Assembly (NCBI GenBank): GCA_027008775.1
Contig: JALVDV010000010.1
Coordinates: forward strand, 96,529-160,528
Reading direction: 5' to 3'
Source of the DNA: Candidatus Moraniibacteriota bacterium
GTDB taxonomy: Bacteria; Patescibacteriota; Minisyncoccia; Moranbacterales; DUUL01
DNA: 64,000 nucleotides
Position 1 is the first letter of the stretch. The number at the start of each line of letters is the position of its first letter. Made by a program: the position numbers and the translations under genes. The notes under the pieces were generated by a model that did no database searches, was not told the DNA's origin, and worked only from the letters and a program-made list of their open reading frames with translations. This document shows, piece after piece, positions 9,535 through 64,000 of the stretch.

Positions 9535-10260
9535 ATGAATACAGTAAAAATGGCAGACATTAACAACTCGCTGGTAGACTCCAGCCAAAAAATGTGGAAT
9601 GGGTTGGTTGATTACTTACCAGCGCTAGTACTGACAGTCGTGATATTGGTTGTCGGTTTGGTTCTGGCTTTTGTCTTGGGCAGTTTAACAACCAAGATAG
9701 TCAAGAGTCTGCAGGTTGATAAAATTTTGGCAACTTTTGGAATCAGAGAAAAATTGAAAAAGTATGATATTGATTTTTCAATATCCGGTATTTTCGGTTG
9801 GTTAGTCAAATGGTTTGTAATCTTTACCACCTTGTTTACCGTGGCCGATATTTTAAACTTGCAAAATGTCTCTGAATTCTTGAGCCGAATATTGGCCTAC
9901 ATTCCAAATGTTTTGGTAGCGGTTGTTATCTTGACATTAGGTTTGATAGTGGCCAATTTCTTGGCGGAATTGGTTGATAAGTCAATCAGCACGACTGACT
10001 TCTTAAACAAGACTTCCGTAAGAGTTCTGAGGGCTATCACTAAATGGATAGTAATACTGTTTAGTGTTATGGTGGCCTTGACAGAACTCAATATCGCCAC
10101 TGAACTAATCCAGATTTTCTTCTCCGGAATTGTTATGATGTTCTCTTTGGCTGGAGGTATTGCCTTCGGTTTGGGAGGCAAGGACAAGGCAAAAGAACTG
10201 GTTGATAAAATATTCAGCGAGGAAGAAGAGTCAGAAGTTAGGGAAGACTACGAAGAATAA
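9535..10260 (+). CDS. Membrane protein with TM-helix repeats (MscS-like N-terminal region)
   Basis: It has repeated TM segments and an acidic C-terminus. Confidence 0.55.
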   Translation: MNTVKMADINNSLVDSSQKMWNGLVDYLPALVLTVVILVVGLVLAFVLGSLTTKIVKSLQVDKILATFGIREKLKKYDIDFSISGIFGWLVKWFVIFTTLFTVADILNLQNVSEFLSRILAYIPNVLVAVVILTLGLIVANFLAELVDKSISTTDFLNKTSVRVLRAITKWIVILFSVMVALTELNIATELIQIFFSGIVMMFSLAGGIAFGLGGKDKAKELVDKIFSEEEESEVREDYEE

Positions 10261-36649: not shown

Positions 36650-38404
36650 CTACACCACCCCTTTTTTCTTCATAAAGGCCAAGATACCAACGGTGATTAA
36701 GGTAGAGAAGAGAACCAAGAGAACAATGTTGGTGGCCAAACCGGTCTTGGGAGCGGAGCGACGGTAACCAAAGTCAGCCTTGGTGTGTTCGTCTTTTTCT
36801 TTGAGTTTAACAGAGGTTTGGTTGTCCAGTTTACCATCGGGGTCGTAGGTTGGAATTAGATTCTCAACATCTTTAACTACCACCCGATAATGTCCGGAGC
36901 AAAGATTCTTAATCTTGTAACGACCATGTTTGTCAGTGGTGTCACAGTATTTCTTGTTACCGCGAAAAGCGCAGACTTTAACATCAGAAATTCCTTCTTC
37001 AATATCTTCTTGAATACCGTTACCATTGGTGTCATACCAAATATAGTTGCCAATGGAAGATTGACAATCTTCTTCCTCTTCTTTTCTTTCTTCTTTGAGT
37101 TTGACGGTAACCTGATCAGAGTCGGTAATGGTTTTGGAACCAAGCTTGGCGGTAACCGTTACTTTGTTGGTGGTATCTTGGTTGATGACCACTGACTTGG
37201 TACAACTCATAGCTTCGCCAACATTCAAAGAAGTCTGGGGACAGGTGATGGTTCCCAATTGATCATCTTGAACTTGAATGTTGGTTAGTTTAGTGTCGCC
37301 GGTGTTAGTGATACGATAAGTGTAAGTGACTGTTTCTCCTTTTTTTACTTCAGTGGCGGAAGCGCTTTTTTCAACTCTAACGCCGGTGTTTTCTTTTTGA
37401 CAAACACTACTGCAACCATCGCCACTGACAGTGTTGCCGTCATCGCATTCTTCGGAGTCTTGTTTAAGGCCGTCTCCGCATTTACCTCCTTGAACAACTA
37501 CGTTTTTACAGTCACTGGAACAATAGGTACAAGAACTGTTGTAAGCCGGGGTACAAGTTTGGCCGTTGTTAGCGCCTTCATCGCATTGTTCGCCACTTTC
37601 TTTGGTGCCATTACCACAGTTGGGAGAAGGAGAAGTTTCTTTTTGACAAACACTACTACAACCATCGCCACTGACAGTGTTGCCGTCATCGCATTCTTCT
37701 CCGTCTTCCAAAACTCCGTTACCACATTGGGGAGAAGGAGTTTCATTAACTTTCTCCAAAAGCATACAAACGGGCTCAAAGCCGTGTTTGAACTTTACTC
37801 CCTTGGGTCCGGCGTGGACCACTTTGATTTGGCGCAAAGGAGAAGTTATTTGCAGAGCAGAGGAACCATAGTTAACAGCAGTGATTTTACCGGCTTCTTC
37901 CACGCCATCGGGCAGGTCTTCCGTTGTGCCGGAACGAACTCCGTTAAAGTCTATGTAGTACTGTTCGTGAGATTCATCAGCCGGGTTGGCTTGACTGCGA
38001 CCGACATAGCTGTCAAAGGATTCCAGATAAACGTTGTACTTGCCGGCGGGGATGGAGATTCCAGAAACAGTCTTTTCCCTGGGGAAATTGTGACCGTTTA
38101 AAACTCCGCCGTCGGAAACCATAATGTCACCATTGTACTTGATAAGGATATCCCCTTGTTTCTTGGTTTGCAGATGACAAACTCCGGAACAGTGATTGGC
38201 CAGATAAGTGGTGGTTTGGCGAAGGTCTTGGTTGAGAGAAGCAATCTTTTGGTTTTGCGACTGAAGGAGAACAGCGCCGAAAGCCAACAAAACAATCAGC
38301 AATAAAAAGATTCCTCCCACCAAGAGAGGTTTACGCCAAGACCATTGGTAACGAGAAGAACGGCGAGATCTTCTTGGACCACTGCTTTTTTTTCTTTGCA
38401 CCAT
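36650..38404 (-). CDS. Surface protein with Myxococcus-type Cys-rich repeats, a DUF11 domain, an SdrD-B-like domain and a C-terminal sortase-type sorting signal (copy A)
   Basis: An N-terminal TM/signal segment is followed by two CDDGNTVSGDGCSSVC repeats and then an SdrD-B-like domain. The C-terminus carries a sortase-type signal: SAPKTGLAT, a hydrophobic stretch, then KKKGVV. Confidence 0.7.
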   Translation of the reverse strand: MVQRKKSSGPRRSRRSSRYQWSWRKPLLVGGIFLLLIVLLAFGAVLLQSQNQKIASLNQDLRQTTTYLANHCSGVCHLQTKKQGDILIKYNGDIMVSDGGVLNGHNFPREKTVSGISIPAGKYNVYLESFDSYVGRSQANPADESHEQYYIDFNGVRSGTTEDLPDGVEEAGKITAVNYGSSALQITSPLRQIKVVHAGPKGVKFKHGFEPVCMLLEKVNETPSPQCGNGVLEDGEECDDGNTVSGDGCSSVCQKETSPSPNCGNGTKESGEQCDEGANNGQTCTPAYNSSCTYCSSDCKNVVVQGGKCGDGLKQDSEECDDGNTVSGDGCSSVCQKENTGVRVEKSASATEVKKGETVTYTYRITNTGDTKLTNIQVQDDQLGTITCPQTSLNVGEAMSCTKSVVINQDTTNKVTVTAKLGSKTITDSDQVTVKLKEERKEEEEDCQSSIGNYIWYDTNGNGIQEDIEEGISDVKVCAFRGNKKYCDTTDKHGRYKIKNLCSGHYRVVVKDVENLIPTYDPDGKLDNQTSVKLKEKDEHTKADFGYRRSAPKTGLATNIVLLVLFSTLITVGILAFMKKKGVV

Positions 38405-41503: not shown

Positions 41504-42583
41504 TTAAATATATTTTTCATCTTTCTTTTTCAGTTCTTTGATTATTTCTTTTACCTCCTGTGCTCTGGCTTTGGGGCAAACCAAAAGAGCGTTGTCGGTA
41601 TCAACAATAACCAGATCGTCAACTCCGATGGTGGCGATTATTTTGCCCCGGCGACCGTAAATCAAACTGCCGGAAGTGTCCAGGTTGAGACATTCTCCCT
41701 TGGTTAAATTACGCCTTTCGTCGGCCTGGGATAACAAATTTTCGTGCAGTGTGTCCCAAGTGCCGATGTCCTTCCAACCAAATTCACCTTTGATAATGAG
41801 CATATCTTTGGGATCAATTTTTTCCGTGATGGCGTAGTCAATAGAAATTTTTTCCATTTGACCGTATAATTCCCTGATTTTCTCCGGACGATTTTTTCCC
41901 TGCAATTCTTCTTTAATGGCTTGTAGAATTGTAAACGTTTGAGGTGTGTATTTTTCGTAAGCTTCCAGAAATTTACGCGGCGTCCACATATAGTAATTGG
42001 CGTGCCAAAGGTAGTTGCCCGATTTTAGATATTTTTGAGCGGTTTTAAAATCCGGTTTTTCGGTGTGTCCCAAAAATTCATAAAATTTCACGCCGTTTTT
42101 TTCCTCCAAGAGTTGACCGATCTTGGTGTAGCCCAGGGCGGTGTTTGGTTCAGTGGGAAAAATGGCGATGTCCAGCAGTTTGCCGGTTTGCTTAATCACC
42201 TCTTCGGCAGTGGCGATACTTTTCAGAAAATCGTCCACTCTGGCGATGTAGTGGTCGGAAGGAATGAAAGCCATCGGTTCGTCGGGATCAAGAAGGCTCA
42301 GTTTTAAAGCGTTAAAACCCATAGCCGGAGCGGTATCACGTCGTTCCGGTTCAATGATGATATTTTCCAAGGGAAAATCAGGCAGAATTTCTTTGACTTT
42401 TTCCGCGAGAGAAGCGGTGGTGGCGATAAATTTTTTGTCCGCCGGGTAATCTTTAAATCTGTCTAAAGTTTCTTCCAACATAGTTTTTTCGGAAGTGAGG
42501 CGACAGAATTGCTTGGGAATATCGGAACGACTCATCGGCCAAAGACGGGACCCGGAGCCACCGGCCAAAATAACTATTTTCAT
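41504..42583 (-). CDS. Mannose-1-phosphate guanylyltransferase-like NTP-transferase
   Basis: The N-terminal motif ILAGGSGSRLWP is present. Confidence 0.8.
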   Translation of the reverse strand: MKIVILAGGSGSRLWPMSRSDIPKQFCRLTSEKTMLEETLDRFKDYPADKKFIATTASLAEKVKEILPDFPLENIIIEPERRDTAPAMGFNALKLSLLDPDEPMAFIPSDHYIARVDDFLKSIATAEEVIKQTGKLLDIAIFPTEPNTALGYTKIGQLLEEKNGVKFYEFLGHTEKPDFKTAQKYLKSGNYLWHANYYMWTPRKFLEAYEKYTPQTFTILQAIKEELQGKNRPEKIRELYGQMEKISIDYAITEKIDPKDMLIIKGEFGWKDIGTWDTLHENLLSQADERRNLTKGECLNLDTSGSLIYGRRGKIIATIGVDDLVIVDTDNALLVCPKARAQEVKEIIKELKKKDEKYI

Positions 42584-42745
42584 AAATTTTCTTTAGTTTT
42601 TAAGTCTTTAAAAACCTGTTTTAATTTAGCACCAAAGAAATAGCTTGTCTAGCAAAATCGCCGGAAGATCAACTTTCGGAGGCGGTTGAAAAAGAAAACA
42701 GCCATTGCCCGGTTAGAGACAATGGCTGCGGAGAGGCCAGGAGAA

Positions 42746-43345
42746 TTATTTAATCTTTCTTCTCCCGACCAGGCCCAGGCCGGCGAGGCCTGAGCCGAAA
42801 AGGAGGATGGTCGCCGGCTCGGGCACCGGGGCTGGCGGGTTATCCACGGAAATCTCCGTTAGCTGGAGATTCCCGCACAAACCTCCGATGGCGACGACCA
42901 TGTCGTCGCGATCCCAGTCACTCCACCTGGAGGGCAGGTCCTCCAGGTGGATACTCCAGATTCCCGGAGCCGGCTGGTTCCAGAAAACGTGCTGGATTCC
43001 CTGGTCTTCGGGGGAATTCAACCGGGGATCGCTGTACCAGTCGTACAGCTCCCCAGAGGGGCTGTATGTTTGGAAATGGATTCCGAAAGACTGGAATCCA
43101 TCCCAATCATTGGCGGAGAAGGTCTGCCAGCTCCCGGGCTCGTCGCCCGCCTGGAGGACGGGCAACTGGTTTTGGGGATCGTCGGTTTTGTAGAAAAACA
43201 GTGACGATTCCCAGGATGCTTCTTCCTGGACGTCAACGACAAAAAGGCTGCCGTCCAGTTTGAAGATTGGGATTACCTGCGTGGCATTGGCCACACAGGT
43301 GAAAAAGAATAGAAAAAATAAAAATAAAAGTGGGATTTTTTTCAT
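42746..43345 (-). CDS. Secreted protein with a C-terminal PEP-CTERM sorting signal, strongly GC-shifted
   Basis: The signal peptide MKKIPLLFLFFLFFFTCVANA is AT-rich. The C-terminus reads VPEPATILLFGSGLAGLGLVGRRKIK, which is PEP, then a TM segment, then an RRK basic tail. Body codons end mostly in G or C. Confidence 0.75.
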   Translation of the reverse strand: MKKIPLLFLFFLFFFTCVANATQVIPIFKLDGSLFVVDVQEEASWESSLFFYKTDDPQNQLPVLQAGDEPGSWQTFSANDWDGFQSFGIHFQTYSPSGELYDWYSDPRLNSPEDQGIQHVFWNQPAPGIWSIHLEDLPSRWSDWDRDDMVVAIGGLCGNLQLTEISVDNPPAPVPEPATILLFGSGLAGLGLVGRRKIK

Positions 43346-43495
43346 TTTTTACCTCCCATTTCTGTGTCTCCCTGCCCCCAGGGAGACAATAAAAAGAACT
43401 AGCGACAATGGGGCTATTGCCACTTTTACTTTAAAAAATCTATCCCACCTCCTTTCATTCATTTTATTTAACGGACTTAATTAGTCCGACTTGGC

Positions 43496-43525
43496 ATTGT
43501 AAAACAGAAGTGGGTGACTGTCAAG
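43496..43525 (-). promoter_or_regulatory. Exact consensus promoter TTGACA-N17-TACAAT for the PEP-CTERM gene
   Basis: The exact hexamers with a 17-nt spacer read on the minus strand. They lie directly after a terminator hairpin at 43528..43557. Confidence 0.6.
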
Positions 43526-43593: not shown

Positions 43594-44622
43594 TTATTTA
43601 TTTTCCAATTCAGCCACTTTAGCCTGCAAATCACGGATTTCCTTTTGTTGCTCTTTGACTGCTTCAATCAAAACTCCAACCAGACCGTCATAGTCAACTG
43701 TTTTGTAGCCATTGGGGCTCTCATTAACCAAGCTGGGGAAGTCTTTTTCAATTTCTTGAGCGATTACTCCGATATTTTTCTGGTCATTGCTTTTCAATTT
43801 ATACTCCACTCCGCGAATGTTCTCCAATCTCTGTAAAGCATTTTCCACTGTTTTGATGTCTTTTTTTAATCTAACATCAGAGCCCCGACGGAAATTGGCT
43901 GCCCAGACATCAGCAAATTGTCCTTTACCTTTACCAACTACCAAGCCGGCATTTCTGCTTCTGGATCCATCCACTCTAATCCCGATGGATCCGGCCAGGC
44001 TGGGAGCGTTGGGAGAAACATCAAAAGCGTAAATCCAGGGACCCCGGGTGTTATCAACTTTTTGATATTCACTGTTGTTAGTGACAGTGCCAATTCTAAA
44101 TTTGCCCTGAGAGACGAAAGTTTTACCAAAAATGTTAGCGTACTGGTTGTGACCGCGACCAACTACCAAAGCGCTATCCGGTCCTTGATTGCCAACGCGG
44201 ATACCGATGCTTCCGTTCATATTGCTCACGCCCGGCACTTGATTGATGGCATAAATCCAGGGTCCTCTCATCGCATCTATTCGGTTGTACCCGGCGGTGC
44301 TGTTAACCATTCCTATTTGCAGATACGGACCGGAGGCCTGGGCTCCTTGAGCATACAATCTGACAGCGCCGTTGGCAAAAATATTACCATTAGCCAACAA
44401 GGCTGTGCTTCGGTTACCGGCAACGTTAACGGCCAAACCGCCGTCTTTAGCTTGCCAAATTGGGCCGGTGTTTAAAGGCGCTTTCAAGTTACTGGCCGGG
44501 GGATTGGAAGATGGCTCCGTCCAATTGGTTGATTGGGCACTGGTTGATTGGACATAAACCAAGGCTGCCAAAGCAACAAGTCCCGTCGCAACCACCATTT
44601 TGAATTTACTATTCATTTTCAT
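43594..44622 (-). CDS. Secreted tail-fibre-like protein with a C-terminal peptidase S74 intramolecular-chaperone domain
   Basis: It has a signal peptide and two internal roughly 100-aa repeats. The C-terminus reads SDVRLKKDI…GVEYK…IGVIAQEIEKDFPSLV…VDYDGLVGVLIEAVKEQQKEIRDL, which matches the auto-cleaving chaperone of phage tail spikes. Confidence 0.7.
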   Translation of the reverse strand: MKMNSKFKMVVATGLVALAALVYVQSTSAQSTNWTEPSSNPPASNLKAPLNTGPIWQAKDGGLAVNVAGNRSTALLANGNIFANGAVRLYAQGAQASGPYLQIGMVNSTAGYNRIDAMRGPWIYAINQVPGVSNMNGSIGIRVGNQGPDSALVVGRGHNQYANIFGKTFVSQGKFRIGTVTNNSEYQKVDNTRGPWIYAFDVSPNAPSLAGSIGIRVDGSRSRNAGLVVGKGKGQFADVWAANFRRGSDVRLKKDIKTVENALQRLENIRGVEYKLKSNDQKNIGVIAQEIEKDFPSLVNESPNGYKTVDYDGLVGVLIEAVKEQQKEIRDLQAKVAELENK

Positions 44623-45019: not shown

Positions 45020-45874
45020 CTAGTTAACTTTAACCGGTAAACTCGTTTCCAAATTATGATAGTTGTATTTGACCTGGACATTTCCGTTACCCTTATTTTT
45101 GGCTTGAATAATCTTGTTAACCTCTCCCGCCAAATCAAAGGCTGAAGAATTTTCCGTCCAGGTGGCCAAACCGGTGACATCTAAACCGGAACAACTGTTT
45201 TTAGAAGCGGAAAGACAAGCTTTGAGGTTTTTATTATCGCCCTCACTCATCGTTAAGCTTGTGAGAGGATTGTTGTTGCCACAAGTATTTTCACAGATAA
45301 CCAAATTTTTGCCAAAAGAATCTATTCCACAGGCTTTGGCCTGACCGAAACTTACCCAACCAAGCTCATTAGACCAGGCGTAACCGGACAGTTTCCCGTG
45401 AGAATCCAGATGGACTCCGTAGTCTTGCCCGTTTGTAACTTTTCCCCTCATCTTTATCCAACCTCTCCAACCACCAGAATTGTTTATTTTTTCCTCTTGA
45501 GCGATGCCCACAATTCTGGCCCAACCGGTCAAATTGTTACCTTCTTTTCTTACCCCTCCTTTATCTCCATTGGGCGCGTTGCAATTGGCTTGGTAAGCGC
45601 TTCCACAATGCTCTTGGGGACTAAAGTCCACCCAGCCCAGATTGGAACTCCAGGCGTAACCGGTAATATTACCGTCACCGCTTGGTATTTTTAAATTATA
45701 AGAAATACTGCCGTTTTGGTTGGCATTGGTGGCGCTAATCCAACCAAAATTAGTGTTGCTGCCAGCCCAAAACCAACCGACAATATTATTGTCATTAGGG
45801 GCGGCTTTGACTAGAAAGGTAATTCCAATAATTGCCAAACTGAGCAGAGAACCGTAGATTATTTTTTTGAGCAT
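45020..45874 (-). CDS. Secreted protein with tandem G(Y/W)AWS…LGW(V/I)xF repeats
   Basis: A signal peptide is followed by at least three aromatic GW repeats and a Cys-rich C-terminal part. Confidence 0.5.
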   Translation of the reverse strand: MLKKIIYGSLLSLAIIGITFLVKAAPNDNNIVGWFWAGSNTNFGWISATNANQNGSISYNLKIPSGDGNITGYAWSSNLGWVDFSPQEHCGSAYQANCNAPNGDKGGVRKEGNNLTGWARIVGIAQEEKINNSGGWRGWIKMRGKVTNGQDYGVHLDSHGKLSGYAWSNELGWVSFGQAKACGIDSFGKNLVICENTCGNNNPLTSLTMSEGDNKNLKACLSASKNSCSGLDVTGLATWTENSSAFDLAGEVNKIIQAKNKGNGNVQVKYNYHNLETSLPVKVN

Positions 45875-48400: not shown

Positions 48401-48555
48401 AAAAATGACGACACTAAAAAAATTTAGAAAATTTTGTTCCGGGTTTCATTCTGCTTGTCACATTATACTAAAAAACAAAACACCGGGCAAACGAATCGGT
48501 TTTAGATATGAAAAAAGCGGAAGCTTCGGCTTCCGCTGAGAAACCATTTTTCCCC

Positions 48556-49032
48556 TCACCTCCTTGGTGGAGGTGGAGGTGGAGATGGAGATGGAGGGTG
48601 TCGCCTCATCGGTTGCCCCTGGTGATAATAAGGGGCGGAGCGCTGAGACGCCGATGCCGGCGGTGGAGGGGGCACCGCCTGCACCTGTGATGGACGAGGT
48701 GTTGGCGTTGGAGGAGGGGGTGAGATATACCTCGCCCGTTGCCCCTGCTGATAATAAGAGGCGGACCGGCGAGGTGTTGGCGCCGGAGGGGGCGCCGGGC
48801 GGGGGAAGCGCTCTTGGAGACAGACACGTTGTCCCCCTAGGTACACGCAAACCCGGCCGAAACGCCGGGTTGCGTACGCCCCGTGATTTTTCCCCCACAG
48901 CTGAAGGCTGTGGGAAGAAAATTTGAATCCCTTCCCCCGGAACTCCCAAAAAATACTTGGGAGTTCCCACTGGGCCAGAACCGGCCCAGTGGAAAAAATG
49001 AAAAAAATAAAAAATAAAAAAATTTTTTTCAT
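48556..49032 (-). CDS. Secreted proline-rich repeat protein, GC-shifted
   Basis: A strong SD (GAAGGAGGT) precedes the ATG. The signal peptide MKKIFLFFIFFIFSTGPVLAQ is AT-rich. The body is a Pro-rich tandem repeat of the form RSAxYYxQGQ…PPPP. Confidence 0.6.
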   Translation of the reverse strand: MKKIFLFFIFFIFSTGPVLAQWELPSIFWEFRGKGFKFSSHSLQLWGKNHGAYATRRFGRVCVYLGGQRVCLQERFPRPAPPPAPTPRRSASYYQQGQRARYISPPPPTPTPRPSQVQAVPPPPPASASQRSAPYYHQGQPMRRHPPSPSPPPPPPRR

Positions 49033-49101
49033 ACTACCTCCTTCGCCCCGATTACCGGGGCTCTAAATTTTTTTAATTTTATAAGGTACTCATCTGCCTT
49101 G

Positions 49102-49130
49102 ATTGTACAACATTTTTGGAAAAATGTCAA
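49102..49130 (-). promoter_or_regulatory. Exact consensus promoter TTGACA-N17-TACAAT for the Pro-rich protein gene
   Basis: Read on the minus strand, the 5'UTR then contains a GCCCCGG-taat-CGGGGC hairpin immediately before the SD. Confidence 0.6.
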
Positions 49131-58298: not shown

Positions 58299-60053
58299 CT
58301 AAACCACCCCTTTTTTCTTCATAAAGGCCAAGATACCAACGGTGATTAAGGTAGAGAAGAGAACCAAGAGAACAATGTTGGTGGCCAAACCGGTCTTGGG
58401 AGCGGAGCGACGGTAACCAAAGTCAGCCTTGGTGTGTTCGTCTTTTTCTTTGAGTTTAACAGAGGTTTGGTTGTCCAGTTTACCATCGGGGTCGTAGGTT
58501 GGAATTAGATTCTCAACATCTTTAACTACCACCCGATAATGTCCGGAGCAAAGATTCTTAATCTTGTAACGACCATGTTTGTCAGTGGTGTCACAGTATT
58601 TCTTGTTACCGCGAAAAGCGCAGACTTTAACATCAGAAATTCCTTCTTCAATATCTTCTTGAATACCGTTACCATTGGTGTCATACCAAATATAGTTGCC
58701 AATGGAAGATTGACAATCTTCTTCCTCTTCTTTTCTTTCTTCTTTGAGTTTGACGGTAACCTGATCAGAGTCGGTAATGGTTTTGGAACCAAGCTTGGCG
58801 GTAACCGTTACTTTGTTGGTGGTATCTTGGTTGATGACCACTGACTTGGTACAACTCATAGCTTCGCCAACATTCAAAGAAGTCTGGGGACAGGTGATGG
58901 TTCCCAATTGATCATCTTGAACTTGAATGTTGGTTAGTTTAGTGTCGCCGGTGTTAGTGATACGATAAGTGTAAGTGACTGTTTCTCCTTTTTTTACTTC
59001 AGTGGCGGAAGCGCTTTTTTCAACTCTAACGCCGGTGTTTTCTTTTTGACAAACACTACTGCAACCATCGCCACTGACAGTGTTGCCGTCATCGCATTCT
59101 TCGGAGTCTTGTTTAAGGCCGTCTCCGCATTTACCTCCTTGAACAACTACGTTTTTACAGTCACTGGAACAATAGGTACAAGAACTGTTGTAAGCCGGGG
59201 TACAAGTTTGGCCGTTGTTAGCGCCTTCATCGCATTGTTCGCCACTTTCTTTGGTGCCATTACCACAGTTGGGAGAAGGAGAAGTTTCTTTTTGACAAAC
59301 ACTACTACAACCATCGCCACTGACAGTGTTGCCGTCATCGCATTCTTCTCCGTCTTCCAAAACTCCGTTACCACATTGGGGAGAAGGAGTTTCATTAACT
59401 TTCTCCAAAAGCATACAAACGGGCTCAAAGCCGTGTTTGAACTTTACTCCCTTGGGTCCGGCGTGGACCACTTTGATTTGGCGCAAAGGAGAAGTTATTT
59501 GCAGAGCAGAGGAACCATAGTTAACAGCAGTGATTTTACCGGCTTCTTCCACGCCATCGGGCAGGTCTTCCGTTGTGCCGGAACGAACTCCGTTAAAGTC
59601 TATGTAGTACTGTTCGTGAGATTCATCAGCCGGGTTGGCTTGACTGCGACCGACATAGCTGTCAAAGGATTCCAGATAAACGTTGTACTTGCCGGCGGGG
59701 ATGGAGATTCCAGAAACAGTCTTTTCCCTGGGGAAATTGTGACCGTTTAAAACTCCGCCGTCGGAAACCATAATGTCACCATTGTACTTGATAAGGATAT
59801 CCCCTTGTTTCTTGGTTTGCAGATGACAAACTCCGGAACAGTGATTGGCCAGATAAGTGGTGGTTTGGCGAAGGTTTTGGTTGAGAGAAGCAATCTTCTG
59901 GTTTTGCGACTGAAGGAGAACAGCGCCGAAAGCCAACAAAACAATCAGTAATAAAAAGATTCCTCCCACCAAGAGAGGCTTACGCCAAGACCATTGGTAA
60001 CGAGAAGAACGGCGAGATCTTCTTGGACCACTGCTTTTTTTTCTTTGCACCAT
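58299..60053 (-). CDS. Surface protein with Cys-rich repeats, DUF11, SdrD-B-like domain and C-terminal sorting signal (copy B)
   Basis: Starting from MVQRKK it is 584 aa and about 99% identical to copy A, with one D/N difference seen. Confidence 0.7.
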   Translation of the reverse strand: MVQRKKSSGPRRSRRSSRYQWSWRKPLLVGGIFLLLIVLLAFGAVLLQSQNQKIASLNQNLRQTTTYLANHCSGVCHLQTKKQGDILIKYNGDIMVSDGGVLNGHNFPREKTVSGISIPAGKYNVYLESFDSYVGRSQANPADESHEQYYIDFNGVRSGTTEDLPDGVEEAGKITAVNYGSSALQITSPLRQIKVVHAGPKGVKFKHGFEPVCMLLEKVNETPSPQCGNGVLEDGEECDDGNTVSGDGCSSVCQKETSPSPNCGNGTKESGEQCDEGANNGQTCTPAYNSSCTYCSSDCKNVVVQGGKCGDGLKQDSEECDDGNTVSGDGCSSVCQKENTGVRVEKSASATEVKKGETVTYTYRITNTGDTKLTNIQVQDDQLGTITCPQTSLNVGEAMSCTKSVVINQDTTNKVTVTAKLGSKTITDSDQVTVKLKEERKEEEEDCQSSIGNYIWYDTNGNGIQEDIEEGISDVKVCAFRGNKKYCDTTDKHGRYKIKNLCSGHYRVVVKDVENLIPTYDPDGKLDNQTSVKLKEKDEHTKADFGYRRSAPKTGLATNIVLLVLFSTLITVGILAFMKKKGVV

Positions 60054-60140
60054 GCTATTTGTTTTTATTTTTTTAAGGAAAAGCAAAAAGACAATTATTT
60101 CTTCGCTTAGATTGTAACACAAAAGGGAATTGGGGGCAAT
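58303..60140 (-). repeat. 1.84-kb direct repeat, copy B
   Basis: It is near-identical to 36654..38490 with one homopolymer indel. The upstream non-coding part is more diverged than the coding part. Confidence 0.95.
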
Positions 60141-60387
60141 TGATCGCATCAAAAAGCATCATTGATAAATCATTGGAAATGACGCCAAGATTCGGATAAA
60201 ATATGCTATTTTATTTTTTATTTTGCGCGTTCTTGGTCTGAGATATTCGTTTTATATTTTACAAATATTTACGGTTATTTTATTTTTTCTGAAACACAAA
60301 CAAATGCTCATGCATAATCAGAAGAAAGTTATATTTCTTGGACCGCTCCACCCAAAACCCAGTCGCTTGGCAATATCAGTTTCGTAA

Positions 60388-60825
60388 TTATACTTCTTCG
60401 CTTTGAATTGTTTTTAATTTTTTCCAATTAATTTCTTCCACATTTTTGTTTTTGTCAACAAAAAAGATATACAAGCACAATCTTCTTAAAACATTAAATG
60501 GAGTTTTCTTGATAACCATATCGCGAAAATATGTAGAAAATGCCAGCCCGTATTTATAGCCATGATAACAATCACGATATCTTTCATTTCTGTTAGAATA
60601 CATTCGCGTGATAATTTGCCCCATCGCTGAATTAAAACTGCTACTCCTACTGCCAGAAGGACTTTGTACTTTACTAGACGGATCACCTTTTACTTCAATA
60701 AGCCAATATCTTGGATATTTATCATTTTTAACTTTTATATCCACGCCCTGCTCCCACAAATTCGCCGCTTTTAATGATGTGCCCCATCCTTTTTCTTTTA
60801 AATATTCACACCGCTTCTTGCACAA
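60388..60825 (-). CDS. Small PD-(D/E)xK nuclease-fold protein (putative)
   Basis: VDIKVKND…WLIEVKG fits a D…E-x-K catalytic motif. Confidence 0.35.
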   Translation of the reverse strand: MCKKRCEYLKEKGWGTSLKAANLWEQGVDIKVKNDKYPRYWLIEVKGDPSSKVQSPSGSRSSSFNSAMGQIITRMYSNRNERYRDCYHGYKYGLAFSTYFRDMVIKKTPFNVLRRLCLYIFFVDKNKNVEEINWKKLKTIQSEEV

Positions 60826-60886
60826 AATCTTCCGTTAAAATTGTTCGTTTTTGGTTTGATTGTGATAGCGTAATAATATTTTATTA

Positions 60887-61861
60887 CTATTTTTCTGAAC
60901 TAATTTTTATATATTTTCCAAATTTATCAATTTTTACATCACGATTTTTTTTATAATTACATTTTTTAAAATATCTTATCATCCTTTTTAAATAATTCAC
61001 ATCTTTGGCAACGAAACAATTATAACTATTTTCTACTATAAGTTGATTGATACTTTTAATCGCGTTTTTACCTTCTTTTTTATAAATTTCTATAGGTGAT
61101 TTTATTTTTGGTATTATTACAAGATGCAAATCGGGTCTCAAAGGAAAATGTACAACACCATCCAAAGATGAAAGTCCTACACTTCTATTGTTTTTAGAAT
61201 AAACAAAACAAGGATTATCGGATGTTATCATCGACATTTTCTTGGGAGGCACTATAAAAATCCATTGATTTTCAAATAACTTTTTTGCTATTTCATTAAG
61301 TTTAAATAACCACTTTGAATGCCCCGTGTTTGTTAATTTAATAACATAGCCATCATTTTGAATTGCCTCAAATAATTGTTTTTTTGCTTCTATTTTAGGT
61401 AAAGCATTTATCTTTTTTATCGCTTTTTTCTCGTCTTCATTTATCGCCTGTTTTTCATCTGGTATAATAATTTTATCTACTGACGAAAACTTATCTCTAA
61501 GTCCTATCTTTATAATGGTATCTATAACACTATTTATTTCACTTCTGTGCTTTGGAGTTCTTATGTATTGAAGAGCAACATAAAAAGCAATTGCACTTCG
61601 CTCGTATCCATTTAATTGCTTGCCATAATTAATATCTTTAATAGTTTTAATACCTTTTGCATCAATATATGCAGTAAATTTTTCAGGTAAATATTTATCA
61701 TTAACATCATCCAATATATTAAAATCTTTTATAGAAAAACCTGGCCAACCTGCACCCCTTCTTTTAATTTTGTCTTCCTCTGTGCTATAAATATTTAATT
61801 GATTATCATCACAATACCATTGTTTTAAATATTCCTTTTGTACAATATGATGTTTCGGCAT
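60887..61861 (-). CDS. DUF4238-family protein
   Basis: The N-terminal HHIVQKEYLKQW matches the DUF4238 H(Y/H)(V/I)PQxYL(K/R)xF motif. The start was taken at the internal ATG (MPKHH). Confidence 0.55.
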   Translation of the reverse strand: MPKHHIVQKEYLKQWYCDDNQLNIYSTEEDKIKRRGAGWPGFSIKDFNILDDVNDKYLPEKFTAYIDAKGIKTIKDINYGKQLNGYERSAIAFYVALQYIRTPKHRSEINSVIDTIIKIGLRDKFSSVDKIIIPDEKQAINEDEKKAIKKINALPKIEAKKQLFEAIQNDGYVIKLTNTGHSKWLFKLNEIAKKLFENQWIFIVPPKKMSMITSDNPCFVYSKNNRSVGLSSLDGVVHFPLRPDLHLVIIPKIKSPIEIYKKEGKNAIKSINQLIVENSYNCFVAKDVNYLKRMIRYFKKCNYKKNRDVKIDKFGKYIKISSEK

Positions 61862-61966
61862 AATATTTTCATCATCAAACAAACAACCCCTGCATCAAAC
61901 CTTTTTCCCAGGTTTGGACTTTGGTTATTTGATCTTGTTTTAATTGTATCATTTTATCAATAGAAT

Positions 61967-62956
61967 TCAGGAGGTCTGCGATTTTTTGTTGTTAGAGTGT
62001 TGAAATTTTATATCAATTTCTGCTGCCATATCTCTCAATTCTGAAAAAGAATTATCCAACGATTCTACATAAACATCAAGATTAAATGGATCAACATCTT
62101 TATCCATTGACACCATCTTTTCCATTCTTTTCAATAATTCGTCTATCTTTTTTATTTCTTCAACAATTCCTGGAATAGCTATTCCATGCTTATTTAATGT
62201 TTTGATGTTATACCTGTCCTTAACGCCTTTTTTAAAATCCTCATATATTTTACACAACGTTTCAAAAGAAGTTTTAGAGATATGACGATTGTCCTCAAAT
62301 GACCATAATTTTTGTATTAAATAGCCAGATTGTGCAAGCTTTTCTACTAAACTGTCATATTTAAACTTTTCTTTGTGTTTATTTTCAATTTCATTTAGCT
62401 TTTTTATGATTCTATCCATTTCTATACTTAATACACTAGATTGTTTATTTATTATTTCTATAATATTTATCTTTTTATTAACAAAATTATTATGCGACCA
62501 TACTTGATATTCTAAAATATTTGTATTTTCAGCTGTACTTAATGATGTATATGTAATATTTCCATCTTTATAAGAAATGTCTTTACTTCTTTTTTTCTTT
62601 GTTTCCGATGGATGTCCAATTGTTTCATTTCTTATATTTCGTATTTTTTTAAGTTCCGGAAAACTTTCAAATTTTGGCACCTTGATATCAATAGCCCTTT
62701 CCAAATGCACTATTGAATCCTGTTGTACAATTAGTGCTTGTAATATTCCATATATAGATAATTTTGTATGATATTTTTGCTCTATATATTCTTCTATTGC
62801 TGATTGAGCATCTTGAATATTATCAAAAGCAGACCATAATTTGCTCCAATTACCTTTATCTTTCTTATTCCAAGCTCTTTGCTTACAACAAAAAGATGTG
62901 TAAATAATCTTTTTTAATTTATCAATTTTTGTTCTTAAATTATAGTTATCATTCAT
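61967..62956 (-). CDS. Hypothetical protein with a possible HEPN-like Rx5H motif
   Basis: IRNIRNETIGHPSE contains R-x5-H. There are no other recognisable domains. Confidence 0.35.
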   Translation of the reverse strand: MNDNYNLRTKIDKLKKIIYTSFCCKQRAWNKKDKGNWSKLWSAFDNIQDAQSAIEEYIEQKYHTKLSIYGILQALIVQQDSIVHLERAIDIKVPKFESFPELKKIRNIRNETIGHPSETKKKRSKDISYKDGNITYTSLSTAENTNILEYQVWSHNNFVNKKINIIEIINKQSSVLSIEMDRIIKKLNEIENKHKEKFKYDSLVEKLAQSGYLIQKLWSFEDNRHISKTSFETLCKIYEDFKKGVKDRYNIKTLNKHGIAIPGIVEEIKKIDELLKRMEKMVSMDKDVDPFNLDVYVESLDNSFSELRDMAAEIDIKFQHSNNKKSQTS

Positions 62957-63035
62957 AGTATTTTTTTACACAAACAACCCCTGCATCAGTCCTCTTTTCC
63001 ACTCCTGCATTTTTTGGATTTGGGCGTCAACTGAC

Positions 63036-63506
63036 TCAATGCTTACTTTTCACCCCTTCAAACTCTACACCCACAAAACCCTCCCAGCCCAAAACTATTT
63101 CTTCATTCTTGTACTGTTGGGCGATTTTCTTTATGGCGTCATTTTTGCTTTTTGCCTTGACATCAACAACTCTCTGCAATGTTTCCGTGATTTCTATTTT
63201 GTATTTCTTGGTAGATTTCAAAACAACATCGTCCGCATCCTTATTCTTAATTTTTTCCAAAAATCCTTTAGCCATAAGTTGCAATGTTTCTTCGTCTAAG
63301 TTTTGTAAATTTTCCCATAATTCAAATGTTTGATAAGTGTCATCATTTACAATGTTTCGCCATTCTTTCGGTTCAATTTCCATAAAATCATTATCTTCTG
63401 AAAATTCTTTACACATTATTGAAAACGGAAAATAAAAATCTTTATGCTCATCTAAATATCTTAGAATTTTAATAGCCAAATTCCTATTGATTTTCATAGC
63501 ACACAA
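63036..63506 (-). CDS. Hypothetical protein
   Basis: An ORF is present but no motif was recognised. Confidence 0.35.
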   Translation of the reverse strand: MCAMKINRNLAIKILRYLDEHKDFYFPFSIMCKEFSEDNDFMEIEPKEWRNIVNDDTYQTFELWENLQNLDEETLQLMAKGFLEKIKNKDADDVVLKSTKKYKIEITETLQRVVDVKAKSKNDAIKKIAQQYKNEEIVLGWEGFVGVEFEGVKSKH

Positions 63507-63550
63507 AGTTAAATTTTATGCTTTCATTATTGATCACTATGAAAAACAGA

Positions 63551-64000
63551 TCAAGCCAATTTGTATTTACCTCCGCCCAGAAATTCCAAATAATTTTTAT
63601 CTCGCAATAATTGCAACTGTTGTCTGATTTTATCCTTAATATGTTTGTTGTTTGGATATTTTTTGCTTAAAGCATTTTCAAAATTATACAATTCTCGCAA
63701 AGTAAATTCCGATTTTCCCAAACTATCAATACACTTCATTATGTCCAAAATCCAACCGCGCAAATTTGACTTTTTTTCTTCCCGTAGAAACAAAGTTTTC
63801 CGCCAATTTTTCAAAACCGTTTCTTTCGGTTTTTCTCGGCGGTTTTTGACATAAAAAATTTTTCCACTTTCCGGAATACCCGACAGATCAATACTGCACA
63901 TTATATAGTTTGGTCTACCGGGAATACCGTTTTTTCTAGGAATAATAATCTCCGGCACAAAAAAATGTTTCGGAATAACAATAAAATTGGTAACTTCATA
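63551..64000 (-). CDS. DpnI-like (methyl-directed, GmATC-type) restriction endonuclease, 5'-partial with the N-terminus beyond the window end
   Basis: The reading frame stays open to the window edge. The C-terminal winged helix …CSIDLSGIPESGKIF…RGWILDIMKCID…EFTL…KIRQQLQLLRDKNYLEFLGGGKYK matches the DpnI/Dam-replacing family as I remember it. Confidence 0.55.
   Translation of the reverse strand, partial: YEVTNFIVIPKHFFVPEIIIPRKNGIPGRPNYIMCSIDLSGIPESGKIFYVKNRREKPKETVLKNWRKTLFLREEKKSNLRGWILDIMKCIDSLGKSEFTLRELYNFENALSKKYPNNKHIKDKIRQQLQLLRDKNYLEFLGGGKYKLA

Follow-up and report, generated by a model that had tools for sequence, protein, structure and literature searches.

How did a gene with strongly G/C-ending codons and an exosortase-type sorting signal come to lie in a genome of the candidate phyla radiation (CPR), and what could its product do there? 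The gene in question occupies positions 42746..43345 on the minus strand of a 64,000-nucleotide stretch of contig JALVDV010000010.1 from a Candidatus Moraniibacteriota bacterium, the whole of which is referred to here as the window, and its open reading frame (ORF) has exactly the boundaries given in an initial annotation of this DNA. It encodes a 199-amino acid protein made up of a signal peptide, a beta-sandwich domain, and a PEP-CTERM tail (Table 1). Our reading, held with moderate confidence, is that this lectin gene, as it is called below, is an accessory cassette for a cell-surface, probably Ca2+-dependent carbohydrate-binding protein of the LecB/DUF4114 type in Moranbacteria-like Patescibacteria, and that it was laterally acquired and is hypervariable. 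None of the parts of the gene is new in kind.

The compositional anomaly is large and sharply bounded. The lectin gene has a GC content of 0.55 and a GC content at third codon positions (GC3) of 0.69, against a mean GC3 of 0.416 (sd 0.075) across 58 window ORFs. When codons for the exact amino acid sequence were sampled from the window's own codon usage, the expected GC3 was 0.449 +/- 0.033 (z = 7.3) and the highest of 5000 simulations reached 0.563, placing the GC shift in codon choice and not in amino acid composition. The 5' end is different: the first 20 codons have a GC3 of 0.35 versus 0.73 for the remainder (Fisher p = 0.0013), and they are in keeping with host usage (expectation 0.43 +/- 0.10) and incompatible with codon usage in the rest of the gene (P < 2e-4). 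This drop of -0.38 lies beyond that of all 55 other ORFs (minimum -0.26). The initial annotation, which described a G/C-ending mature protein behind about 20 AT-rich, host-like codons, was therefore accurate on both counts, and neither of the objections it foresaw, a GC content no different from the surroundings or a chimeric misassembly junction, applies. The GC-rich block extends from ~42700 to ~43300 with sharp edges, and contigs of three independent assemblies (ERZ27262687, SRR8439053, and ERZ23491340) match the window at 100% identity over both junctions, on which ground a misassembly or chimera is rejected. A short scaffold of the last of these (L003, ERZ23491340 scaffold_167888, 1 kb) carries, shortly past the 3' end of the gene, an inverted junction in which window position 42523 is joined to 42340-42483 reversed; this is probably an assembly artefact.

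The host is rightly labelled CPR-like. The window encodes SecA, SecD/F, L10, L7/L12, ParAB, tmRNA, and tRNAs, and the nearest named relatives of its SecA belong to a Patescibacteria group bacterium (64%) and to Candidatus Moranbacteria/Moraniibacteriota (59-61%). Three related lineages (L004/L005, L006/L007, and L010, with protein identities of 83%, 70%, and 72%) carry orthologues of the lectin gene at the equivalent position, each time between a Peptidase_S74-domain gene and a ManC-like gene adjoining secA. Their GC3 is 0.61-0.63, and their signal-peptide codons are AT-rich too. Since the gene is syntenic and GC-shifted in all three, its acquisition predates the split of these strains. The horizontally acquired body proposed at the outset thus retains its support from foreign composition, but a recent private acquisition is contradicted, and no donor can be named (see below). 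Promoter, leader, ORF, and terminator are all conserved at the orthologous loci; the promoter is found in L004, L006, and L010, and the terminator is fully conserved in the same three.

Within this conserved frame the lectin gene is the most diverged gene of the neighbourhood. Compared with L006 it has 76.7% nucleotide identity (dN 0.18, dS 0.76), and the flanking genes have 90-100% (94-100% excluding an RNase H gene and a 95-amino acid ORF) with dN <=0.04; the divergent tract is confined to ~43480-42750. The alleles are also mosaic. L004 and L006 share one signal-peptide sequence, which is not that of the window. Over residues 96-131 it is the window and L004 that agree, with L006 close to L010, and the 2 haplotypes of this stretch diverge strongly, at dN 0.42 and omega 0.5-0.84. 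Residues 132-160, which include the putative calcium loop, are nearly invariant among the 4 alleles. The conflicting genealogies of these segments indicate recombination among alleles, and the overall dN/dS of 0.21-0.24 indicates a functional protein.

The mature domain takes on a recognisable fold. An AlphaFold2 model built from a 60-sequence alignment (mean predicted local distance difference test score, pLDDT, 87.6; predicted template-modelling score, pTM, 0.76) consists of a signal helix, an all-beta domain at residues 24-166, a short unstructured Pro-rich stalk, and a C-terminal helix. The top ranks of a Foldseek search against the PDB hold only Ca2+-dependent lectins of the LecB/PA-IIL family (CV-IIL 2boi, RS-IIL 1uqx, LecB 1gzt, BclA, and BC2L-C), with probability 1.0 and target-normalised TM scores of 0.55-0.59, and the window protein accordingly has the PA-IIL beta-sandwich fold. 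A profile comparison by hhalign, for which the LecB sequence used was checked as correct, pairs WSDWDRDDMVVAIG with GTDNDYNDAVVVIN and aligns the calcium loop alone, setting D143-W-D145-R-D147-D148-M-V-V opposite D99-N-D101-Y-N103-D104-A-V-V of LecB. E135/D136 precede the loop, with a 4-residue insertion relative to LecB, whose loop ligands are E95, D99, D101, N103, and D104. The acidic loop of LecB thus has a counterpart in the sequence alignment, and its aspartates are invariant or nearly so: across the 60 sequences D136 and D148 are invariant, and L134, D143, D145, and M149 are conserved in >=90%.

The link to DUF4114 comes through relatives. The window protein does not match Pfam DUF4114 (PF13448) even at E <= 10, while 24 of the 60 aligned family members do (best E = 9.3e-10) and precomputed matches exist for several relatives, so it would belong to DUF4114 only by transitive homology. 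Published work ties DUF4114 to lectins (LecB, BclA, and RS-IIL) and to a Ca2+ pocket, which in Myxococcus PilY1.1 is needed for polysaccharide-dependent motility (PMC9109919); in Acanthamoeba MBP-1, the DUF4114 beta-sandwich is the mannose-binding domain by experiment (PMC11934332). The likeness to these proteins lies in relatives that match PF13448 and in a literature that gives a Ca2+ pocket, polysaccharide adhesion, and mannose binding. Unlike the DUF4114 adhesins, the window protein is below Pfam detection, and it is a single-domain protein and not a module of a large adhesin.

The C-terminus PVPEPATILLFGSGLAGLGLVGRRKIK is a PEP-CTERM signal, as the initial annotation stated, scoring 23.9 bits with TIGR02595 (cut-off 16) and 29.7 bits with PF07589 (cut-off 20.7). 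It is laid out as VPEP-ATILLFGSGLAGLGLVG-RRKIK, with a Pro-Glu-Pro motif, a hydrophobic helix, and a basic cluster at the extreme C-terminus. The N-terminus, read without a dedicated predictor, is of the signal-peptide type (MKK, a hydrophobic stretch, and ANA followed by TQ), and cleavage likely follows ANA, judging by the AxA motif and the invariant A21/T22. A lipoprotein reading of Cys17 was rejected because FFTC departs from the canonical lipobox and relatives lack the Cys. In its signal peptide and in all 3 elements of its tail the protein resembles other PEP-CTERM proteins, which were reportedly described as parts of exosortase systems by Haft and colleagues in 2006. It departs from the classic systems in its CPR/Patescibacteria host and in the lack of an exosortase in the sequences examined. 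It also departs from the classic hosts with their many paralogues (>=4 in 7 kb in Desulfobulbia locus L012), since across all six frames of the 64 kb this is the only PEP-CTERM tail; a related clade (L027/L021/L029) has 2 adjacent PEP-CTERM genes.

The initial annotation had seen no exosortase in the window, and we find none among its multi-transmembrane (TM) proteins (BacA, MscS-like, SecD, SecF, an M50 peptidase, a small multidrug exporter, and a VanZ/C39 protein), in the 10 kb past its left end (where the genes include Wzz, GT2, and PMT_2), or in ~150 kb of related CPR-like loci. A 9-TM protein near the L008 homologue was considered as an exosortase and set aside as weakly PMT-like. The searchable literature yielded nothing on PEP-CTERM or exosortase in CPR. 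The initial annotation called a PEP-CTERM protein unexpected there, but this genome is not the only one among CPR to have it: one relative already carries the label 'PEP-CTERM sorting domain-containing protein [Parcubacteria group bacterium]'. Even without an exosortase, the tail would be expected to serve as a type-I C-terminal membrane anchor. The question it raises is whether these reduced genomes carry an exosortase or whether the tail acts simply as a membrane anchor.

Relatives of the protein place the gene in a wider family, defined here by an exhaustive profile search as 197 cluster representatives at E <= 1e-10, of ~200-250 amino acids with signal peptide, domain, and PEP-CTERM tail. 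A first word-index search had returned 7 matches, and further members came from the profile search and from a second search with an alignment; a metagenome scan with a tight alignment gave one locus, and no viral carrier was found in IMG/VR. Named members come from Desulfosarcina widdelii, D. cetonica, Desulfotalea, Desulfobulbaceae, Thermodesulfobacteriota, and one Parcubacteria metagenome-assembled genome. In a neighbour-joining tree the family falls into 3 groups. All named Desulfobacterota belong to a long type, which has the additional N-terminal segment YWTLTD, and 2 short-type groups hold all members with CPR-like context: the 'LEDLPS' group (bootstrap 197/200) contains the window clade and the 'HTGG' group (bootstrap 185/200) contains the Parcubacteria protein. 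The long type (for example Desulfosarcina widdelii DSCW_02190, P0181) has the overall architecture and tail of the window protein and also its motifs E-x-A-x-[WY]-E-S, FGFYF, YSD..LN, H, and LEDq..DxDxxDM, but it is only 27-33% identical, carries the extra segment, and forms a separate clade.

Every short-type member with readable DNA lies in an AT-rich CPR-like locus, and most are GC-rich islands there. The closest relatives outside the window clade, at 44-48% identity, are themselves such islands. The 2 adjacent PEP-CTERM genes of L027/L028 have GC contents of 0.55 and 0.59 next to neighbours of GC3 0.24-0.31 (all but one ORF), and the same cassette in L021/L029 has gene GC 0.50-0.60 beside neighbours of GC 0.31-0.37. 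Gene GC3 is 0.55 in L024 (neighbours 0.24-0.35) and 0.54 in L022 (neighbours 0.41-0.48), while L008 has a native value of 0.42, most of its neighbours being at 0.31-0.51 and 2 at 0.18-0.24. Between L027 and L021 the lectin gene is again a nonsynonymous hotspot, with dN 0.40 versus 0.05 in the flanks. The mature domain does not lead to the donor lineage that the initial annotation hoped to recover from it, its relatives outside the clade being GC-rich islands in AT-rich CPR-like loci and the named Desulfobacterota forming the separate long-type clade. No short-type member was found in a GC-rich genome or context and no donor genome was identified; therefore, the donor lineage cannot be named.

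In the second CPR-like clade the gene 3' of the lectin gene is also a PEP-CTERM gene (L027 10730-11344; L021 1042-1677; L029 614-1249). It is GC-rich, encodes 204-211 amino acids with a poly-Gly linker and a nearly identical tail, and makes up, together with the lectin gene, an island of 1.35 kb that has a long inverted-repeat terminator region of its own. The reverse composition occurs in GC-rich loci, two of which (among L011, L012, L020, and L014) were named as Desulfobulbia-type. The family gene in L011 (P0006, 3208-3906) is AT-shifted, with GC3 0.39 against neighbours of 0.63-0.74, and PEP-CTERM genes are AT-shifted in Desulfobulbia-type loci (L012 163-6199, L020 884-1519, and L014 9140-10105), the opposite of the GC-rich gene of the window.

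Several of these results weigh against the reading of the gene as a laterally acquired, surface-tethered lectin. Single-sequence Pfam scans miss both DUF4114 and PA-IIL (PF07472, no match), a PDB sequence-profile search gave no LecB match and only a spurious repeat match to GhpA, and the hhalign match to the LecB profile spans only 14 columns. The Ca2+ site of each LecB subunit is completed by a free C-terminal carboxylate, that of a Gly in the adjoining subunit, and the domain here continues into a stalk and is not C-terminal, which rules out a ligand of that type. Given no sequence-level match and no possible free C-terminus, we do not file the protein as a member of the LecB family; at best it would work like a LecB-type lectin. 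Relative to LecB/PA-IIL (PDB 1gzt, 2boi, 1uqx, 2wr9) it is ~13% identical and has a domain of ~145 amino acids versus 114 as well as the loop insertion, and LecB is a soluble tetramer whereas the window protein is predicted to be tethered. The fold and the calcium-loop motif are evident, while binding of sugar and of Ca2+ is a prediction from sequence and model. No exosortase occurs in any sequence examined, and the CPR identity of L021, L024, and L027 derives from composition and gene content and not from a marker gene. The direction and source of the transfer are likewise suggested by composition alone, with no donor and no short-type member in a GC-rich context.

What has kept the gene GC-rich is the point at which lateral spread meets its closest competitor. 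Among third-position singleton substitutions in the 4 alleles, 22 are AT-to-GC and 28 GC-to-AT, and the implied equilibrium GC3 is 0.64 for the lectin gene, whereas in the flanks it is 0.34 for the S74 gene and 0.31 for the ManC gene. This difference would follow if high GC were actively maintained in CPR genomes, by GC-biased gene conversion (gBGC) tied to allele recombination or by selection on codons or mRNA, and it would suit that idea that the locus is a recombining mosaic and that short-type proteins only 40-48% identical to each other are nevertheless GC-rich in >=3 AT-rich lineages. However, the equilibrium drops to ~0.46 without the window's own branch, from which most of the signal comes; parsimony is unreliable at dS 0.4-0.8; GC3 in the other 3 alleles is lower than in the window allele, as would be expected from decay; and the distant CPR member P0005 has the fully native GC3 noted for L008. 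To our knowledge, a GC3 shift of +0.27 also far exceeds known gBGC effects in bacteria. Within clades, GC richness persisting over flank dS of 0.35-1.1 would be compatible with slow passive amelioration from an ancestor at ~0.75-0.8 by a two-state estimate. Between clades, at 40-48% protein identity, a single ancient acquisition should be fully ameliorated, and repeated lateral spread or a maintaining force is therefore required. We lean slightly toward repeated spread and regard maintenance as rather unlikely.

Three further explanations concern the signal peptide, the tail, and the variability. The initial annotation proposed a graft onto a local secretion signal, in which intragenic recombination near codon 20 joined the coding segment of a foreign mature domain to a native, resident one for the signal peptide. 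We think this less likely than not, although modular exchange of this kind is plausible. The break in codon usage at about codons 20-22 speaks for it, as do the GC-rich, Ala/Val-type signal peptides of relatives in other lineages, the recurrence of an MKKI-poly-Phe signal peptide with a hairpin before the ribosome-binding site (RBS) in a single other real window ORF (48556-49032), and a genealogy of the signal-peptide segment among alleles that differs from that of the body. What holds up of the proposal is thus a derived poly-Phe signal peptide with its own history. Less easily accommodated are K3, A21, and T22 near the cleavage site, which are invariant in distant relatives, and the GC-rich hairpin-then-RBS layout 5' of the signal peptide, which is common to relatives and shows the 5' module to be more than a local feature. 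Coding sequences tend generally to be AT-rich at the 5' end, and such an end could arise in place; a low-complexity poly-T tract could arise by drift or slippage. In another view the protein would be an orphan or decaying passenger, left over without function after transfer of its gene into a genome lacking exosortase machinery. This would fit the lack of an exosortase in the window, the 10 kb beyond, and the related loci, and the single tail, but we think it very improbable: the ORF is intact in 4 diverged alleles under the purifying selection given above with a near-invariant loop and tail, its own promoter, leader, and terminator are conserved, the family persists in several lineages, and a C-terminal TM helix could anchor the protein without processing. 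Least credible of all is a diversity-generating retroelement (DGR) as the source of hypervariability by templated mutagenesis. DGRs are common in CPR and the gene is a local divergence hotspot, but no repeat or copy of any part of it occurs in the window, which excludes a local DGR. The sole RVT_3-labelled neighbour is an RNase H-type protein, with no reverse transcriptase among the neighbours, and variation is spread over the N-terminal half as indels and block-wise haplotypes and is not concentrated in a C-terminal variable region.

The signal peptides of L027, L021, L024, and L029 are Ala/Val/Gly-rich with GC3 0.50-0.80, which makes the AT-rich poly-Phe type a derived feature of the window clade. 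The other window gene with such a signal peptide (MKKIFLFFIFFIFSTGPVLA followed by Q) is an unannotated gene at 48556-49032 (-) encoding a 158-amino acid Pro-rich secreted protein. It has a promoter at 49102-49130 and a hairpin at 49045-49061 directly before its RBS, and its body is Pro/Arg-rich and repetitive (GC 0.58, GC3 0.54). The product differs by one amino acid in L006 and is shortened to 110 amino acids by a repeat deletion in L004. None of the 3 assemblies with gene calls in this region calls a gene here, and the ORF list shows a wrong-frame ORF at 48458-48970.

Under the reading of the gene as a laterally acquired lectin cassette, it would be transcribed from its own promoter with a structured leader, and its product would be exported via Sec and cut after ANA. 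The PEP-CTERM helix and RRK tail, a clear signal, would hold the protein at the membrane, and if the genome encodes an exosortase, further processing and transfer would be possible. The lectin domain on its short Pro-rich stalk would then bind glycans, most plausibly those of a host cell or matrix. The cassette, foreign in composition, may have been passed laterally from a genome of higher GC content to the ancestor of these strains, and related cassettes may have reached other AT-rich CPR lineages. Thereafter it would have been a surface-protein locus that is hypervariable and recombines, with purifying selection prevailing overall and the calcium loop conserved, and with an exchangeable signal-peptide segment of host-like composition.

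Host recognition and attachment in CPR/Patescibacteria are largely unexplained, and the lectin gene offers a concrete, testable candidate for recognition of host or matrix, on account of its predicted surface tether, its standing as the fastest-evolving, recombining gene of its neighbourhood, and its recurrence as a compositional island in CPR-like lineages. The compositional pattern also makes a small natural test case of amelioration versus maintained GC. A bolder generalisation, which we offer as speculation with the balance against it, would see PEP-CTERM DUF4114 cassettes as CPR-associated, laterally circulating, hypervariable host-glycan adhesins, kept far more GC-rich than their AT-rich genomes by recombination-linked biased gene conversion or continual re-import and working in cells without a classical exosortase, where they would be anchored by an exosortase-independent C-terminal tail or handled by an unrecognised sorting enzyme.

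The leader of the lectin gene matches no Rfam family (the best is the T-box at 22 bits, with a gathering score of 93), and a regulatory role may be suggested for it from its structure. Its plan recurs in L027, L021, L024, and L008. In all short-type lectin genes a sigma-70-like promoter is followed by a long hairpin-rich leader (window 43346-43524; L027 9825-10093; L021 166-401; L024 288-511; L008 ~9865-10000), with a Shine-Dalgarno-like element of the GAAAGGAGGTGAT type ~100-125 nt 5' of the start and a GC-rich hairpin directly 5' of the true RBS. The upstream element resembles the STAB-SD mRNA stabiliser of B. thuringiensis cry3A. The terminator-like hairpin with T-run is an extra element in the leader of the window gene. 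Stalk length varies among alleles.

Table 1. Parts of the lectin gene unit, in order of transcription; positions are those of the window.
Feature	Position	Strand	Description
Putative promoter, sigma-70-type	43496..43524	-	TTGACA-17-TACAAT; 11/12 matches to consensus, which suggests the function
Structured 5' leader	43346..43495	-	~150 nt; folding z = -3.2 vs shuffled sequences
Leader hairpin	43472-43490	-	
Shine-Dalgarno-like element in leader	43444-43456	-	GAAAGGAGGTGGG
Terminator-like hairpin and T-run in leader	43401-43424	-	
GC-rich hairpin in leader	43366-43387	-	
RBS	43352-43357	-	GGGAGG
Signal peptide, residues 1-21	43283..43345	-	MKKIPLLFLFFLFFFTCVANA; AT-rich codons, GC3 0.35; predicted helix residues 4-17
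Mature beta-sandwich domain, residues 22-166	42848..43282	-	Divergent DUF4114 / LecB(PA-IIL)-fold, lectin-like; GC3 ~0.75
Putative Ca2+-binding loop, residues 134-151	42893..42946	-	LEDLPSRWSDWDRDDMVV; most conserved segment of the protein
Short Pro-rich stalk, residues 167-172	42830..42847	-	VDNPPA; pLDDT 72-73, no regular structure
PEP-CTERM sorting/anchor signal, residues 173-199	42749..42829	-	PVPEP, TM helix, RRKIK; predicted helix residues 177-198
Stop codon	42746-42748	-	
Intrinsic terminator	42698..42729	-	13-bp stem and TTTCTTTTTC

The genes around the cassette include other candidates for the cell surface. The upstream neighbours at 43594-44622 and 45020-45874 (-) encode secreted proteins, one of 342 amino acids with a C-terminal Peptidase_S74 (endosialidase chaperone) domain and the other of 284 amino acids with no family match, and together with the lectin gene they form a small cluster of surface/secreted protein genes. 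Near-identical surface-protein paralogues with DUF4215/SdrD_B/DUF11 domains and the same C-terminal TM anchor lie at 36650-38404 and 58299-60152 (repeats D1, D2, D5, and D6, ~21.65 kb apart), bracketing a 21.6-kb segment in which the genes for ParAB, SecA, and ribosomal proteins lie along with the lectin gene. In contig L006, SecA is linked to DUF4215, which in turn is linked to the 1080-amino acid gene; this alternative path through the repeat reflects either an assembly collapse or a real rearrangement. At the right end of the window, 60388-64000 is a low-GC island (GC 0.27-0.34, GC3 down to 0.18) encoding DpnI-like, DpnD/PcfM-like, and DUF4238 proteins and a weak AbiU2-like HEPN match, probably a laterally acquired defence/restriction island.

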